From Clostridia bacterium (lineage in GTDB: Bacteria > Bacillota > Clostridia > Oscillospirales > CAG-272), in assembly GCA_017482465.1 (NCBI GenBank), contig JAFUMW010000063.1:1-54329 (forward strand): DNA of 54,329 nt. The letters are read 5' to 3'. This document shows, piece by piece, positions 6,511 to 16,656 of the stretch. Position 1 is the first letter of the stretch, and the number at the start of each line of letters is the position of its first letter. Below the pieces are notes generated by a model. It was not told the origin of the DNA, ran no database searches, and saw only the letters and a list, made by a program, of their open reading frames with translations. A program made the translations under genes and the position numbers.

Positions 6511-8031
6511 ATGAGTTATACACCAAACTTAAACTTATTGCTTACTCCCGAAGATGATACCACAACTACCTTTAAGGACTGGCGTGTTGGTATCAACGGA
6601 GAAGAAGGCAATTCCAATATGGCAAAAATTGACGAGGCGTATGGTGCCTTAAACGACCAGACACAGAAAATTCAATCTAAGGTTGATGTTGTTTCAGACA
6701 AGGTGTTTGGTGACGCTCCTAAGACTTGGGGCGATGTGCAGACAATCGTAAGAAACGGTGCGGCTGCACAGTACTTCGACATTGGTGACCAGTTCATTGT
6801 CGAAAAGTTATCTGCCGTTACAGCAAGTAAGGGTACAAGTACTGGTATTACAGCGGTTACTGTTAATGCAAACTCTTTCGTAGAAGGTTGTGGAGAAGTT
6901 CACGCTGGAGAGTATGTTTTCACATTTGATGGCAAGTCTTGGCGTAATGAAGCCGGTAAGGCTGTTAAGATTGAAAACTATGGTATCTCTGTAACCGGTA
7001 CCGCTAAAGCTGGCGACCATGTGATTATCACAGAGACATCTACACAGCTTGCTTTTGATGTTATTGGTATCGACCACGACACACCTGCAGACGGAACCTT
7101 AAAGCACAGTATGACATTACAGATGCACGACCTCTGGCCTACTGCTATTGCGTTTGACGCCACAGAGGCTACTTGGTATATCGACGAAGCTACCTATCCT
7201 CAGGGGCTTGTTGCAGGTACATATCACTTCACACTTCCTGCTGGATATGATAACGCTTATGGTGGTGGTTCCACATTAAACTTCACACTCACAAAAGATG
7301 TTCCCGTTGGTGGACAAATCAGATTTGCTTGGAGTTACAATGTGCAGGCTAACACTTGTAAAATTTCCACATACGAGTCTATCGGAGCGACTGCAGTAAT
7401 TGAAACTGTAAGTGTTGCCGATGGTGAAGCAGGAACCGCAATGCCTACACTTCACGCTACAGCGGTAAGTGATAACGCAAACTGCGTACATCGTTTCCGT
7501 TATGGTTCTAATAACTGGGCAGAATCTGGTCTTCGTCAGTGGTTAAACACTGATGCAGAAGCAAATACTTGGTGGGAGCCTAAAACAGTATTTGATAGAC
7601 CTATTGCGATTGCGGCAACAACTGCAGGTTTCTTAAAAGGAATCGACCCTGCGTTCCTTGATGTTGTTGGAGAAGTAGTGAAGACAACTCAGGAAAGTAT
7701 CTCTGACGAATACGGACACAACACATCTACCGAACGCTTCTTCTTACTCTCTCGTCCTGAAGTATATGCAGGCACAGAGCGTAGTGCAGACGGTGCAGAC
7801 GGTAAAGTATATGAGTACTATGGTGCTGGATATTCTGACTTAGCATCTCCCGGTACTGGAGCAGACTCGAACAGAATTAAATACAGAAACGGTTCCGCAA
7901 CTTATTGGTGGTTGCGTACTCCTTATTCTACCAGCGGTCATGATGTTCGTCTTGTCTACCCTACAGGTACCTTGAACAACGTCAGTGCCAACAGCAGTCT
8001 CGGCGTCGCTCCGGCTTGCGTAATCGTGTAA
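6511..8031 (+). CDS. DGR target protein: tail fibre / receptor-binding protein with C-terminal variable region
   Basis: RBS ggagga. N-terminus MSYTPNLNLLLTPEDD...W..GINGEEGNSNMAKIDEAY is a typical phage fibre N-terminus. C-terminus ...YWWLRTPYSTSGHDVRLVYPTGTLNNVSANSSLGVAPACVIV carries the VR. The W..SGLRQWLN and WWLR(T/S)P...GV(R/A)P motifs fit C-type-lectin-fold DGR targets. Confidence 0.85.
   Translation: MSYTPNLNLLLTPEDDTTTTFKDWRVGINGEEGNSNMAKIDEAYGALNDQTQKIQSKVDVVSDKVFGDAPKTWGDVQTIVRNGAAAQYFDIGDQFIVEKLSAVTASKGTSTGITAVTVNANSFVEGCGEVHAGEYVFTFDGKSWRNEAGKAVKIENYGISVTGTAKAGDHVIITETSTQLAFDVIGIDHDTPADGTLKHSMTLQMHDLWPTAIAFDATEATWYIDEATYPQGLVAGTYHFTLPAGYDNAYGGGSTLNFTLTKDVPVGGQIRFAWSYNVQANTCKISTYESIGATAVIETVSVADGEAGTAMPTLHATAVSDNANCVHRFRYGSNNWAESGLRQWLNTDAEANTWWEPKTVFDRPIAIAATTAGFLKGIDPAFLDVVGEVVKTTQESISDEYGHNTSTERFFLLSRPEVYAGTERSADGADGKVYEYYGAGYSDLASPGTGADSNRIKYRNGSATYWWLRTPYSTSGHDVRLVYPTGTLNNVSANSSLGVAPACVIV
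7907..8018 (+). repeat. DGR variable region (VR)
   Basis: 112-bp ungapped match to 8774-8885. 16 mismatches, every one opposite an A in the TR copy. The adenine-free GC-rich 3' block cggcgtcgctccgg (8001-8014) is identical in both. Confidence 0.9.
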
Positions 8032-8043
8032 TCTGGTAACCTA

Positions 8044-8237
8044 ACACCTTGTGGTTACAAAGGGAAATAATCCACCCGACAGGGTGGTTATTTTATTATA
8101 CTTAAAACAATGGTACACACTTTGCGGTATAGGATAGCAAAGGGTGTATCTATAATATGTGACTACCCTTTGTGGTATGTAATAACTTTGTCCCACCCTT
8201 TATGGGTTAAGACAAGGTGTAGGACACTTTACGATAT
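8044..8237 (+). repeat. five degenerate direct repeats (consensus ACAC-CTTTGYGGTAT) in the target-avd intergenic region
   Basis: Copies start near 8044 (acaccttgtggttac), 8115 (acacactttgcggtat), 8163 (ctaccctttgtggtat), 8193 (ccaccctttatgggtt) and 8223 (gacactttacgatat). Also inverted partners caaagggtgt (8138-8147) and acaaggtgt (8211-8219). Confidence 0.45.
8068..8097 (+). terminator. GC-rich hairpin with 4-nt loop plus T-run downstream of VR
   Basis: taa(t)ccaccc GACA gggtggtta followed by ttttatt. Serves as the target-gene terminator and resembles the VR-flanking hairpin of model DGRs. Confidence 0.5.
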
Positions 8238-8256
8238 ATAATGGGAGGTTGAAGAA

Positions 8257-8721
8257 ATGAGTGTACCAGAAGGTCAAAGATGTAGAGGAAAACTCGCCAT
8301 CGAAACAGAAGCTGATAATCTTTTGCAATACATATTTGATGTTACAGTAAAGTATTATCTGCCACCAGAGCCGTGCGAGGATGCAAAGGTTACAAGAGAC
8401 AAAATGCTTGAGTATGCAAACTCAAAATGGTTTGCAGACAATATGCGTTCTAAAATGTTGTCTTGTGTATCTAACATTCAAACGGCAAACAAAATTGTGA
8501 TTGAAGACAATGCAAGTCTTTATGAGCGAAGAAAATTTCAATCACAAGCAGAGCGTGCGGTTGAAGATGTACTCACTTCTGCCACTCTTATGTATCGCAG
8601 AAAACTTATTAAAAGCAAGAGAGTAAAGTATATCGGAGAACAGATAGGACACCTAAAGCGTATGATACAAAATTGGCGTAAATCTGATAAACAAAGATAT
8701 ACGGCTTCTCTTAAGAAATAA
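8257..8721 (+). CDS. avd: DGR accessory protein, Avd-like (accessory variability determinant), tentative
   Basis: Lies between target and TR. RBS GGGAGG 8 nt upstream. Helical and basic C-terminal half ...ANKIVIEDN..ERRKFQSQAERAVEDVLTSATLMYRRKLIKSKRVKYIGEQIGHLKRMIQNWRKSDKQ resembles the Avd AN...R..Q......GW.KS pattern. At 154 aa it is longer than canonical Avd. Confidence 0.55.
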   Translation: MSVPEGQRCRGKLAIETEADNLLQYIFDVTVKYYLPPEPCEDAKVTRDKMLEYANSKWFADNMRSKMLSCVSNIQTANKIVIEDNASLYERRKFQSQAERAVEDVLTSATLMYRRKLIKSKRVKYIGEQIGHLKRMIQNWRKSDKQRYTASLKK

Positions 8722-8773
8722 CTTATATGGGGTAGTCGTTGCAAGAAGTTCCGTGCTGCATTTTAGGTGCCTC

Positions 8774-8885
8774 AGTGGTTGCGTACTCCTAATTCTACCA
8801 ACGGTAATAATGTTCGTAATGTCAACCCTACAGGTAACTTGAACAACAACAATGCCAACAACAGTAACGGCGTCGCTCCGGATTG
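8774..8885 (+). repeat. DGR template repeat (TR), non-coding
   Basis: Invariant donor copy of the VR. In the VR frame it has 14 AAY (Asn) codons. The listed ORF 8767-8961 (N-rich) is this repeat. Confidence 0.9.
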
Positions 8886-9061
8886 GGTGGTATCAGTAGG
8901 AAGTAGCACTTTATGTGACCAAACCGAATACCCACGCAAGGAACGGCTATCCCAGCCGTAAAAGGCGAAACAGGTTTGCCGATGCAGTCTACTCAACCAA
9001 CGGTAGTAGGTACTGCTATACACGGTATTCAAAATTTATTTTAATCAGAAAGAGGTGCTCA
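8886..9061 (+). ncRNA. DGR RNA spacer region between TR and RT (putative priming/structural part of the template RNA)
   Basis: 176-nt non-coding gap in the canonical TR-RT position. Adjacent hairpins acggct-atccc-agccgt (8943-8959) and ggcgaa-acagg-tttgcc (8964-8980). Confidence 0.45.
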
Positions 9062-10165
9062 ATGAATACTACTAATGCACCTGCTGTCAAGGAGATGGCT
9101 TGTGACTTTGAAAATTTGTATAACGCAATGAATGTTTGTAAATCAAGTGTTATGTGGAAAGATAGTGTCGCAGGCTGGGTAAAGAACGGAATCGTAAACT
9201 GTGCAAAACTTGAAGAGCAGTTAATGAATGGCACTTATGACCTCGAAGAATATTCTCGGTTCACAATCTACGAACCCAAGAAAAGAGATATCGTAAGTAC
9301 ACGATTCAAGGATAGAGTGTTCCAAAGAAGTCTTTGCGACACATACTTGACAGAACAAATCACTAAATCCTTTATCTACGATAATGGTGCTTGCCTTGAA
9401 AATAAGGGCACAGAGTTTGCACGGCGTCGGCTCGTGGCTCACATTCAACGCTTTTACCGCAAGCACGGTCGTAGTGGTTATGTCTTGAAATGCGACATAA
9501 CTAACTACTTTGGCTCCACTCCACATAGTGTAGTCAAAGAAAAGATGCGAAAGTTATGTGATGACGATTGGGCTTACTCTGAAGTCTGTCGAATTGTTGA
9601 TAGCTTTAGCACGGAAGAAAGCCCGGGTGTTGGTATGGGACTTGGCTCTCAGGCAACACAGCTTTGTCAACTGGCTGTATTGAACGATATCGACCACGGG
9701 ATTAAAGAGCGTAAACGAATTAAACACTATGTCAGATATATGGACGACCTTATACTTATTCACGAAAGTAAGGATACCTTAAAGGATTGTTTGAAATATA
9801 TCGAAGACGAACTTAACAAAATGGGATTGAAACTGAGTGCGAAGAAAACACAGATATTTCCCATAACACAACCAATTCACTTTCTTGGATATTCATTCAG
9901 ACTTACCGAGACTGGTAAGGTTGTAAAGAAAGTTCTTCCAAAGAAAGTAACTCACGAGCGTCGCAAATTAAAGCGTATGAGAAAGTTGGTTGATGAGGGT
10001 CTGATGACTCGTGAAAAGTTAGACCAGTGTTTCGAGTCGTGGTTAGCTCACGCTTCGGCAGAACCGTCTGCCGGAAGAAAAGGTACTCCGTTCTTAAGTA
10101 GGACGGATGATTACTTTATGATTGAAAATATGAAACGATTTTATAAATCTTTATGGGAGGTTTAG
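9062..10165 (+). CDS. DGR reverse transcriptase
   Basis: ATG at 9062 after aaagaggtg. RT motifs present: KKRDIVSTRFKDRVFQRSL, LKCDITNYFGSTPH, GMGLGSQATQL (DGR-type GxxxSQ), YVRYMDDLILI (YMDD), FLGYSF. The ORF-track start at 8915 is an upstream extension through the spacer. Confidence 0.9.
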   Translation: MNTTNAPAVKEMACDFENLYNAMNVCKSSVMWKDSVAGWVKNGIVNCAKLEEQLMNGTYDLEEYSRFTIYEPKKRDIVSTRFKDRVFQRSLCDTYLTEQITKSFIYDNGACLENKGTEFARRRLVAHIQRFYRKHGRSGYVLKCDITNYFGSTPHSVVKEKMRKLCDDDWAYSEVCRIVDSFSTEESPGVGMGLGSQATQLCQLAVLNDIDHGIKERKRIKHYVRYMDDLILIHESKDTLKDCLKYIEDELNKMGLKLSAKKTQIFPITQPIHFLGYSFRLTETGKVVKKVLPKKVTHERRKLKRMRKLVDEGLMTREKLDQCFESWLAHASAEPSAGRKGTPFLSRTDDYFMIENMKRFYKSLWEV

Positions 10166-10166
10166 T

Positions 10167-10340
10167 ATGCAGTATTTATCAATAAAAGACCAGCTCTTGA
10201 TTGAGCGTAAGAAAAATGCTGCCCTCACCGCTGAGGTAGCTAAGAACAAGGCTGATACAGATTATATCGCTATGATGTGTGATGTAGAACTGGAAATGCC
10301 TGAAGACGAAATGATGGACACGGAAGTTGAGGAGGGCTAA
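10167..10340 (+). CDS. small hypothetical phage protein (57 aa, acidic C-terminus)
   Basis: ATG one nt after the RT stop: MQYLSIKDQLLIERKKNAALTAEVAKNKADTDYIAMMCDVELEMPEDEMMDTEVEEG. Below the ORF-track cutoff. Sits in the position usually found before xkdX. Confidence 0.4.
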   Translation: MQYLSIKDQLLIERKKNAALTAEVAKNKADTDYIAMMCDVELEMPEDEMMDTEVEEG

Positions 10341-14525: not shown

Positions 14526-15584
14526 GTGCCGTCTTTCAAGAACAATCAGCGTGGTACTTGGTATTGTAAGTTTTACTACACAGATTGGACTGGGGCTAAG
14601 AAACAAAAGAAAAAGGAAGGCTTCGCCACCAAGAGAGAATCGCAAGAGTGGGAACGCAACTTCCTTAACAGTTGCCGCATTGACTGCGACATTACATTTG
14701 AGAATTTTTGTGAGAAGTATATGGCTCATTGTAAAGCAAGATTAAAGCCTACGACTTACGAGAATAAGATGTACACCATAAGAGATAAGGTTCTCCCGTA
14801 TTTCAGGCATATGAAGCTCAAAGATATAAAACCCAGTACGCTCCGTACTTGGCAAGACTCTTTGATTACACACGAGAAAGGATACACAGAAACCTATCTT
14901 AAGACTATCAACAATCAGATGTCAGCAATCTTAAACTTTGCGGTAAAGAATGATTATATCCCTCATAACCCGATGCACAAATGTGGAAGTATGGGAAAGA
15001 AACACGCAGAGGGATTACAGTTCTGGACTCTGGATGAATTCAAACAATTCTTTGAGTCTGTAAAAGATAAGCCTATGTCAGAAGCCATATTCAATCTGAT
15101 GTTCTATAGTGGAATTCGTGAAGGAGAGTTACTTGCTTTAACATTAAAAGACTTTAACTTTGAAAAGAATACAGTCGATATAAATAAAAGCTATGTACGA
15201 TTCGATGGAAAGGATTTAATACAAACTCCAAAGACTCCTAAGAGCAAGAGAGTCATCACATTGCCTATACAGACAATGGAGATAATAAAAAATTATGCAG
15301 GCAAACTATACAGCTATCGTCCTACCGATAGGTTGTTTACCTGCACTAAAAGCTATTTATCTCACGAGATGATTCGTGGTTGTAGATTGTCGGGTGTGAA
15401 GAAGATTAGAGTTCACGACATCAGACATTCTCACGCTTCGCTTCTTATCGAACTCGGTTTCCAACCTCTGTTGGTATCAGAGCGTTTGGGACACGAGAAC
15501 ATCGAAACCACTTTGCAAACTTACTCACACTTGTATCCAAACAAGCAACAGGAAGTCGCTGATAAACTCAGTGAGATAGCTTAA
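14526..15584 (+). CDS. int: tyrosine recombinase / phage integrase
   Basis: GTG start 9 nt after GGAGG. N-terminal arm-binding-type domain (GTWYCKFYYTDWTGAKKQKKKEGFATKRE). Catalytic signature GIREGELLAL, HDIRHSHASLL, LGHENIETTLQTYSHLY. Confidence 0.9.
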   Translation: MPSFKNNQRGTWYCKFYYTDWTGAKKQKKKEGFATKRESQEWERNFLNSCRIDCDITFENFCEKYMAHCKARLKPTTYENKMYTIRDKVLPYFRHMKLKDIKPSTLRTWQDSLITHEKGYTETYLKTINNQMSAILNFAVKNDYIPHNPMHKCGSMGKKHAEGLQFWTLDEFKQFFESVKDKPMSEAIFNLMFYSGIREGELLALTLKDFNFEKNTVDINKSYVRFDGKDLIQTPKTPKSKRVITLPIQTMEIIKNYAGKLYSYRPTDRLFTCTKSYLSHEMIRGCRLSGVKKIRVHDIRHSHASLLIELGFQPLLVSERLGHENIETTLQTYSHLYPNKQQEVADKLSEIA

Positions 15585-15629
15585 GGGAGCTCGATATTAG
15601 TACGCTTTTAGTACTCACGACTCTCTCAA

Positions 15630-15677
15630 ATCCCCGGGAAGCCCGTAGTTAAGCGGTTTCTACGGGGATTGCTTTTT
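15630..15677 (+). terminator. hairpin plus T-run between the integrase and the guaA stop codon
   Basis: cccgtag/ctacggg (alternative atcccc/ggggat) then gcttttt. The T-run overlaps the guaA stop on the other strand. Confidence 0.4.
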
Positions 15678-16656
15678 ATTCCCACTCGATCGTGCCGATA
15701 GGCTTAGGGGTAAGGTCAAAGAGGACGCGGTTGATACCGTCGACCTCCGCTGTGATGCGGTCGGTTATTTTATGAAGTACATCGTACGGGATCTCCTCGA
15801 TAGTCGCTGACATTGCGTCTGTCGTGTTTACTGCGCGGATGATCGCCGGCCATCCCTCATATCTCTTGCCGTCCTTTACGCCTACACTCTTGAAGTCCGG
15901 TACTGCTATGAAATACTGCCATACCTTTGCCGCAAGTCCGCACTTATCAAATTCATCGCGCAGGATTGCATCCGCCTCACGCAGAGCGTGAAGCCTATCA
16001 CGCGTGATCGCACCGAGGCAACGCACGCCGAGTCCGGGACCCGGGAACGGCTGACGGTATACCATATCATCGGGAAGACCGAGCGCCTTACCTACCACGC
16101 GTACTTCATCCTTATAAAGAAGGCGCACGGGCTCTACAAGCTCAAAATGCATACCCTCGGGAAGTCCGCCGACGTTATGGTGAGCCTTTACTCCGTCGCT
16201 TTCGAGGATATCGGGGTAGATAGTTCCCTGTGCCAAAAATTCGATACCTTCAAGCTTGCATGCCTCTTCATTGAACACTTCGATAAATTCGCCGCCGATT
16301 ATCTTACGCTTCTTTTCAGGCTCATCTACACCTGCAAGCTTATCAAGGAAGCGGTCTGTCGCGTCTACATATATAAGGTTAGCGTCGAGCTGGTTTTGGA
16401 ACACCTCGATGACCTGCTCGCTTTCGCCCTTACGCATAAGTCCATGGTTTACATGAACGCATACGAGCTGTTTACCGATAGCCTTTATAAGCAATGCGGC
16501 AACTACAGACGAGTCAACGCCTCCCGAAAGAGCCAGAAGCACCTTCTTATCGCCTACCTGTTCGCGGATCTCCTTTATCTGTTCATCTATAAACGCATTG
16601 GCAAGCGCTTCGTTATTTATTCTTGCCATGTCATCCGGTCTTTTATTACAAAGCAT
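15676..16656 (-). CDS. guaA: GMP synthase, ATP-pyrophosphatase (synthetase) portion only; no glutamine amidotransferase domain
   Basis: LALSGGVDSSV P-loop, HHNVGGLP, FPGPGLGVR, C-terminal ...KPIGTIEWE. ATG at 16656 is 6 nt after GGAGGGG. The upstream neighbour ends 18 bp away, leaving no room for a GATase domain. Confidence 0.85.
   Translation of the reverse strand: MLCNKRPDDMARINNEALANAFIDEQIKEIREQVGDKKVLLALSGGVDSSVVAALLIKAIGKQLVCVHVNHGLMRKGESEQVIEVFQNQLDANLIYVDATDRFLDKLAGVDEPEKKRKIIGGEFIEVFNEEACKLEGIEFLAQGTIYPDILESDGVKAHHNVGGLPEGMHFELVEPVRLLYKDEVRVVGKALGLPDDMVYRQPFPGPGLGVRCLGAITRDRLHALREADAILRDEFDKCGLAAKVWQYFIAVPDFKSVGVKDGKRYEGWPAIIRAVNTTDAMSATIEEIPYDVLHKITDRITAEVDGINRVLFDLTPKPIGTIEWE

Follow-up and report, generated by a model that had tools for sequence, protein, structure and literature searches.

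A prophage cassette in a Clostridia bacterium closely resembles canonical diversity-generating retroelements and varies at template adenines among its relatives

The diversity-generating retroelement (DGR) of BPP-1 carries a variable repeat (VR) at the 3' end of mtd, a tail receptor-binding gene, followed by avd, a template repeat (TR), and the reverse transcriptase (RT) gene brt. Its TR is rich in AAY codons, TR and VR differ specifically at adenines, and the initiation of mutagenic homing (IMH) sequence starts with a GC-rich stretch of 14 nt, followed by a few fixed TR/VR mismatches. Retrohoming in BPP-1 requires a hairpin/cruciform downstream of the VR (PMC3240598), and the hairpins of phage DGRs have GC-rich stems of 7–10 bp and four-nucleotide GRNA loops, at 4–34 bp from the VR (PMC3240598). 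DGRs are also found in the Faecalibacterium prophages Lelie, Roos, Pioen, and CP11 (PMC11792537) and in tentaclin and related targets of nd4 and nd12 (PMC10743442). Here we describe a cassette at positions 6511–10165 of a 54,329-nucleotide contig from a Clostridia bacterium (JAFUMW010000063.1, assembly GCA_017482465.1; hereafter the window). Because the mismatches between its repeats fall only at TR adenines, its parts are complete and intact, and its relatives carry other VR alleles, we consider it very likely to be a canonical phage DGR.

The cassette shares with BPP-1 the gene order, the location of the VR at the 3' end of a tail gene, adenine-specific TR/VR differences, an AAY-rich TR, the make-up of the IMH, and, downstream of the VR, a GC hairpin with a four-nucleotide GRNA-type loop. 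It departs from BPP-1 in its target, whose diversified domain is DUF6273 rather than Mtd (neither sequence searches nor Foldseek matched Mtd), and in its hairpin, which has a 6-bp stem 50 nt from the end of the VR in place of an 8-bp stem immediately downstream. The accessory variability determinant (Avd) also differs, having 154 aa and being recognized by a PHROG profile only, and the host would be a Gram-positive gut anaerobe, judging from lysins with SLH modules and from dockerin genes. The Faecalibacterium elements share the target domain and the placement of the VR, being in prophages of gut Firmicutes with the VR at the C-terminus of DUF6273, although they belong to another host and phage lineage and several have two targets, against a single VR here. 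In the tentaclins, DUF6273 and the VR sit at the N-terminus, with Ig-like domains after them, whereas the structural model of our target places DUF6273 at the C-terminus, behind beta-rich N-terminal domains. A megablast search of the phage collection found no near-identical DNA for the cassette.

The variable and template repeats

An ungapped comparison of the two copies gave a direct repeat of 114 nt, in which 7908–8021 matches 8775–8888 at an offset of 867 nt. An independent repeat search recovered the same pair (114 nt, 86% identity). The homology is bounded at 7907, a G that stands opposite an A at 8774. Within 7908–8018 there are fifteen mismatches, and each of them is an A in the TR. As 34 of the 111 aligned TR positions are adenines, the hypergeometric probability of this outcome is 1.4e-9. 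The initial annotation, which was made from the sequence alone, had likewise reported no changes in the repeat at any base other than A. The earliest non-A mismatch is at 8019 (C in the VR, G in the TR), where that annotation had put the break in homology, just after an adenine-free block common to both copies. We recovered this block as a GC-rich 14-mer, CGGCGTCGCTCCGG, at 8001–8014 and again at 8868–8881.

In the frame of the open reading frame at 6511–8031, the TR encodes WLRTPNSTNGNNVRNVNPTGNLNNNNANNSNGVAPD and the VR encodes WLRTPYSTSGHDVRLVYPTGTLNNVSANSSLGVAPA, reproducing the peptides as first written. Twenty-eight of the 34 TR adenines lie within the fourteen AAY (Asn) codons of this frame, and eleven of these codons have been recoded in the VR by one or two substitutions each; the codon-level comparison agrees exactly with the earlier count. 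That the VR contains no stop codons had also been noted, and none of the TR codons can in fact yield a stop through a change of A to any nucleotide. The earlier figure of about 15^14 protein variants from the AAY codons is arithmetically right (2.9e16). Taken over all 34 adenines, the corresponding numbers are 3.0e19 protein variants and 2.9e20 DNA variants.

One of the fifteen mismatches has to be read differently. A changed GAT codon had been listed among the diversified positions, and the change is present (GAT to GCT at 8014–8016, with 8015 as the altered base), but it does not stand as a diversification event. Base 8015 is C in all twelve full-length VR alleles considered below, and GCTTG in the VR against GATTG in the TR is constant across 21 VR/TR pairs of the wider family, a set that extends to relatives whose RTs are only about 30–45% identical. 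Because the two pentamers are constant in all relatives, we take 8015 to be a fixed IMH*/IMH difference and not a product of mutagenesis. Corrected for this, the VR has fourteen substitutions; they affect 14 of the 33 mutable adenines, and each lies inside an AAY codon. After the GC-rich, A-free 14-mer come fixed mismatches, at 8015 and at 8019. On this sequence pattern, the original interpretation of the 3' ends as an IMH in the VR and an IMH* in the TR, a pair that would give the exchange its direction, holds; its first fixed difference lies four bases ahead of the mismatch originally named.

Alleles of the VR among relatives

Loci of relatives were fetched through their RT proteins and are hence unbiased as to the VR. 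The 90% cluster of the RT has 87 members, and that of the target protein has one. (A scan of viral contigs for the exact pattern, with N allowed at the adenine sites, is biased towards A-only variation and was not used as evidence.) In 24 loci all 115 nt of the TR are the same as in the window, with flanks up to about 12% divergent; in L113 and L114 the TR differs at the boundary base only. Beside identical TRs we found eleven distinct full-length VR alleles and two partial ones. Comparing the VR among relatives was a test proposed with the initial annotation, which named an identical VR everywhere, or variation outside the TR adenines, as contrary evidence. The RT-fetched relatives have many VRs, and these vary almost only at TR-adenine sites, an outcome that supports the original interpretation for the family.

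Twelve full-length alleles were tabulated, a set that includes L115, whose TR differs slightly. About 48% of their mutable adenine cells are substituted, with T more frequent than G and G more frequent than C. Non-adenine cells differ from the TR in 3 of 847 cases (0.35%), two of them in L106/L107 and one in L111. Three further apparent non-A changes in the VR of L115 are all found in L115's own TR. Since this VR carries the three non-A bases of its TR, the VR and TR co-vary across lineages. Even where the target genes of lineages are 9–12% divergent, VR and TR agree at 99.6% of the non-adenine positions. In the window itself, the target gene upstream of the VR is 9–12% divergent from relatives, and the 77 non-A positions of the VR equal those of the TR. 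Concerted evolution of this kind would be expected if retrohoming has copied the TR into the VR again and again.

Comparisons between sister phages indicate how quickly the VR changes. L098, L099, and L100 have one RT protein and flanks that are 0.11–0.20% different, and their VRs are 10–18% different. For L091 and L092 the flanks differ by 0.06% and the VR by 3.7%, and for L100 and L101 the values are 0.03% and 7.5%. Sister phages overall show VR divergence of 3.7–17.8% at flank divergence of 0.03–0.2%. A relative from goat gut (run X4), about 2% divergent across avd, has yet another VR, which again differs at TR-A sites. Judged by these comparisons, turnover of the VR is far faster than that of the genomic background.

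Not all adenine sites behave alike. Site 7970 is C in 10 of the 12 alleles (encoding Thr or Ser), and the adenines at 7918 (ACT) and 7996 (AGT) are unchanged in all twelve, a pattern that suggests selection on scaffold positions inside the mutable tract. As some sites look constrained, the accessible diversity should be below the arithmetic maximum given above.

Two pairs of near-identical sister phages also differ in an unusual way. Nine differences separate L091 from L092 in 9,104 nt, and four of them fall inside a 14-nt piece of the VR (L091:2867–2880). L100 and L101 differ at three positions in the VR (L100:202–208) and at one elsewhere in about 3.9 kb. In both pairs the 3' two-thirds of the VR is shared, including thirteen previously mutated adenine sites, and the difference is a short patch in the 5' part of the VR, at TR-adenine positions. 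A single replacement tract anchored at the IMH does not predict this pattern. Conversion that is patchy or limited to the 5' part, e.g. through heteroduplex repair after cDNA annealing, is one explanation, to which we assign a rather low probability; VR–VR recombination during co-infection, or chimeras assembled from mixed VR populations, could also produce such patches. Patchy or 5'-limited conversion, if true, would be relevant to how the cDNA of DGRs is integrated, a step still unsolved, and the pattern is the sole lead in our data beyond the textbook picture of these elements.

The contigs of seven relatives (L100, L101, L104, L105, L107, L108, and L109) begin inside or just upstream of the VR and keep only the last 35–101 codons of the target gene. 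Contig breaks near the VR are expected from the TR/VR repeat, from mixed VR populations in the samples, or from both.

Genes of the cassette, hairpin, and target fold

Every canonical part of a DGR is present and intact in the window, in the order target-VR, hairpin, avd, TR, RT (Table 1). The VR is placed at the 3' end of the coding target, and the TR lies between avd and the RT gene, 174 nt before the RT start.

Table 1. Coordinates of the cassette features in the window.
Feature	Position	Strand	Description
DGR target gene, 506 aa	6511..8031	+	tail-module protein, C-terminal DUF6273; VR is the last ~40 codons
Variable repeat (VR)	7908..8014	+	differs from TR at TR adenines only; relatives have other alleles, same sites
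Mutagenized tract of VR	7924-8000		14 substitutions, 11 AAY codons
VR/TR mismatch positions	7924, 7934, 7939, 7942, 7951, 7952, 7957, 7970, 7981, 7982, 7985, 7994, 7999, 8000, 8015
IMH-like 3' end of VR	8001..8021	+	CGGCGTCGCTCCGG then CTTGCGT; fixed TR differences 8015, 8019
GC-rich hairpin/cruciform element (putative)	8072..8087	+	CCACCC GACA GGGTGG: 6-bp stem, GACA loop
Accessory variability determinant (Avd), 154 aa	8257..8721	+	phrog_3206 'Avd protein of DGR', E 6.3e-10, residues 1-150
Template repeat (TR)	8775..8888	+	34 adenines; 3' end 8868-8888 is the IMH* counterpart
TR-RT spacer, 173 nt	8889..9061	+	presumed part of DGR RNA
DGR reverse transcriptase (RT), 367 aa	9062..10165	+	RVT_1 E 1.9e-17; phrog_1423 E 2e-84
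RT motif YMDD	9737-9748	+	residues 226-229
RT motif LGSQATQ	9641-9661	+

The best solved relative of the RT is 8ub7 (E 1e-23, residues 42–331 aligned), a 328-aa reverse transcriptase that we take to be the BPP-1 enzyme, bRT. In this alignment YMDD lies opposite YMDD and LGSQATQL opposite IGSLTSQL, with T replacing S. The RT therefore has both the YxDD motif and the [LIV]GxxxSQ-type motif expected of the DGR clade. No Pfam or PDB match was found for Avd; its gene has 96% nucleotide identity in relatives.

Where RT genes of relatives are 91–97% identical and target genes 84–91%, the TR is 100% and the TR-RT spacer 96–99% identical. This gradient of identity points to strong constraint on a non-coding DGR RNA (8774–9061). 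An Rfam search of 7500–10300 gave no match, and the fold energy of the TR-spacer RNA is no better than that of shuffles (z = +0.49).

The putative hairpin at 8072–8087 lies 40 nt past the target stop codon, and its structure matches the hairpin/cruciform element of other phage DGRs (PMC3240598), to which it probably corresponds. It also scores as a terminator, because TTATTTTATT comes directly after it. A hairpin downstream of the VR is kept in twenty relatives, with stem sequences that vary and loops of the form G-N-N-A. Across these relatives pairing is observed in 89.5% of cells, compared to 43–47% with the partner strand slid by 1–3 columns. Compensatory changes point the same way, with 27 double-sided changes against 7.4 in shuffles, and 0/500 shuffles reach the observed value.

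Between the stop codon and this hairpin, at 8032–8067, is a lineage-specific insertion of 33 nt (TCTGGTAACCTAACACCTTGTGGTTACAAAGGG..., itself a weak small hairpin). The window, L106, L098, L099, and L100 have it, and L004, L085, and L103 lack it. With the insertion the hairpin follows the stop codon at a distance of about 40 nt, in place of 5–11 nt. The DGR is apparently not disabled by this, since L098–L100 have the same insertion and spacing and their VRs still turn over. The first hairpin after the stop codon, at 8036–8058, was ruled out as the DGR element; it falls within this insertion, which some lineages only possess.

Further downstream, the stretch ahead of avd (8100–8256) contains repeated CCTTTG(C/T)GGTAT-like motifs. 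A motif GGTACAC..CTTTGCGGTATA upstream of avd is also found in L004, L085, L086, and L103, and in more distant relatives avd comes directly after the hairpin. A simple promoter scan found no sigma-70-like promoter in 8100–8256. This stretch may be a regulatory or operator array.

Dit-like and Gp80 fibre-like tail genes precede the target gene. Its product matches phrog_19280 (E 2e-47), and residues 325–505 match the Pfam family DUF6273 (E 1.2e-18, 68.1 bits against a gathering cut-off of 23.5). The full-length AlphaFold model of the target has a pLDDT of 86, rising above 90 at the C-terminus, and matches many DUF6273 proteins of uncultured phages. The isolated C-terminal domain was modelled poorly (pLDDT 56). 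The resemblance of DUF6273 to the C-type lectin (CLec) fold was described previously (PMC10743442). A profile of thirty relatives matches the N-terminal domain of 9qa6 (E 3.8e-12), the IgA protease of Thomasclavelia ramosa, in which that domain is DUF6273 (domain assignment: PMC12402451). 9qa6 is the sole solved homologue of the diversified domain, and by this profile match DUF6273 is common to a bacterial enzyme that binds a host protein and to the putative receptor-binding tips of phages. The alignment to 9qa6 (window 7468–8028, residues 320–506) takes in a YWLRTP...GVRPA segment that corresponds to the scaffold of the VR.

Probable competence of this copy, and its context

The mechanism we propose follows the BPP-1 model. 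The avd-TR-RT unit would be transcribed, and the RT and Avd would copy the TR(-spacer) RNA into cDNA, misincorporating opposite template adenines. This cDNA would take the place of the VR in the tail-module gene, at its 3' end; the GC-rich IMH and the GC hairpin beyond it would direct the replacement, so that the TR itself is left intact. One or more such events would have produced the resident VR, with its fourteen A-templated substitutions and 11/14 Asn codons recoded. The recoded residues would line the face with which the DUF6273 domain binds its ligand, and the property altered would most likely be the recognition of the phage's host surface receptor. It is by analogy with described systems that we infer that cDNA is made, that the IMH and hairpin play these roles, and that a receptor is bound. 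We consider it highly probable that the cassette is a competent DGR and that its VR is a product of retrohoming.

The repeats could also have arisen without a retroelement, by an ordinary duplication in which the VR then diverged through point mutation under diversifying selection or through gene conversion between phages. The alleles of L091/L092 and L100/L101, which are partly shared and partly different, lend this some colour, and recombination or patchy conversion may indeed add allele shuffling to the family. Point mutation, however, cannot give 15/15 changes at TR adenines (P 1.4e-9). Nor does such an origin fit the change at 48% of adenine sites against 0.35% elsewhere across alleles, the agreement between VR and TR at non-A sites in a gene that is otherwise 9–12% divergent, or the DGR-class RT and Avd that adjoin the TR. 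We give it almost no probability; the specificity for A sites in these alignments effectively refutes it.

Whether the element still operates in this prophage is a separate question from how its VR was written. The claim of recent or active diversification in the initial annotation is well supported for the phage family, in which many alleles accompany one TR, but variation is not seen in the window's own lineage, which has a single VR in every assembly that includes it. A VR state alone carries no date, so the recency of the event in this copy, like the competence of its DGR, is something we infer from the intact parts and the sister lineages.

Several observations weigh against a DGR that is working, or is typical, in this copy. 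The window's lineage was found only in three samples of one study (X1–X3), and its exact VR occurs in the VR contigs of X1 and X2 and in assemblies L096 and L097, with no change seen; these are assembled contigs, which drop rare variants, so minor VR alleles would be invisible. In L097 a G-to-T change at window 9764 (L097:3977) places a stop at RT codon 235, just past YMDD. This base is G in the window, in L096, and in the contigs of X1 and X2, and the stop in L097 may represent an RT-null subpopulation or an assembly error. The hairpin, with a stem of 6 bp at 50 nt from the VR end, falls outside the published 7–10 bp and 4–34 bp. In addition, a Foldseek search of the full-length target model against the PDB returned 9qa6 only, with no CLec chain of the Mtd, TvpA, or FGE type among the matches.

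The first three of these observations would fit a frozen relic, in which the DGR wrote the VR in the past and the cassette of this prophage is now silent or disabled, be it through repression in the lysogen, through the 33-nt insertion moving the hairpin away, or through RT-null variants. We regard this as unlikely. The window has an intact RT, Avd, TR, IMH, and hairpin, and the stop at codon 235 in one assembly is set against an intact codon in the contigs of X1 and X2. The distance of the hairpin is shared by L098, L099, and L100, which have the same insertion and turn their VRs over rapidly. Three samples from one study may hold a single clonal lysogen, which makes one identical VR in all assemblies and runs of the lineage weak evidence of inactivity. 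A competent DGR remains our preferred reading of this copy.

In searches of the sequencing runs, TRs and VRs of other DGR phages pile onto the window's stretch at 80–85% likeness. The depth of the VR contig in X1 was low (4.3, compared to 6–8 in the flanks) and was considered as a sign of heterogeneity; this candidate was dropped, as the low depth was not repeated in X2.

The prophage spans roughly the first 15.6 kb of the bacterial contig (1–15.6 kb), and the rest consists of host genes, including those for a dockerin-bearing GH3, PNPase, and PriA. At the prophage end is a tyrosine integrase (14526–15584), which abuts an opposite-strand gene of 326 aa (14526–16656 region) in which GMP synthase is represented by its ATP-pyrophosphatase and C-terminal domains alone. 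Since the contig begins inside the prophage, the other attachment site is missing. The lysins of the phage family have SLH and SH3 modules, and the runs holding the stretch are all gut, goat, pig, sheep, or faecal metagenomes. From its gene content, the host is probably a cellulosome-bearing Firmicute of the gut or rumen.

In the lysis module, L091–L095 have a NUMOD1/HNH-like homing-endonuclease-like gene before the lysozyme gene (L091:6869–7723), and L111 and L112 have a GIY-YIG homing-endonuclease-like gene in that place (L111:5417–6268). No homing-endonuclease-like gene is present there in the window (~11460) or in L098. On these gene contents, the position before the lysozyme gene looks like a variable insertion hotspot.

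DGRs are a thoroughly known kind of system, and this case does not change what is known of them. What it shows together are a TR that is invariant across lineages about 10% divergent, non-adenine positions of the VR that evolve in concert with the TR, and fast turnover of the VR. These results could be used in annotating DUF6273 proteins as DGR targets and in choosing a lysogen for a study of tropism switching. The family thus provides a natural and well-documented case of DGR diversification of a putative receptor-binding protein in prophages of ruminant, pig, and human gut Firmicutes.

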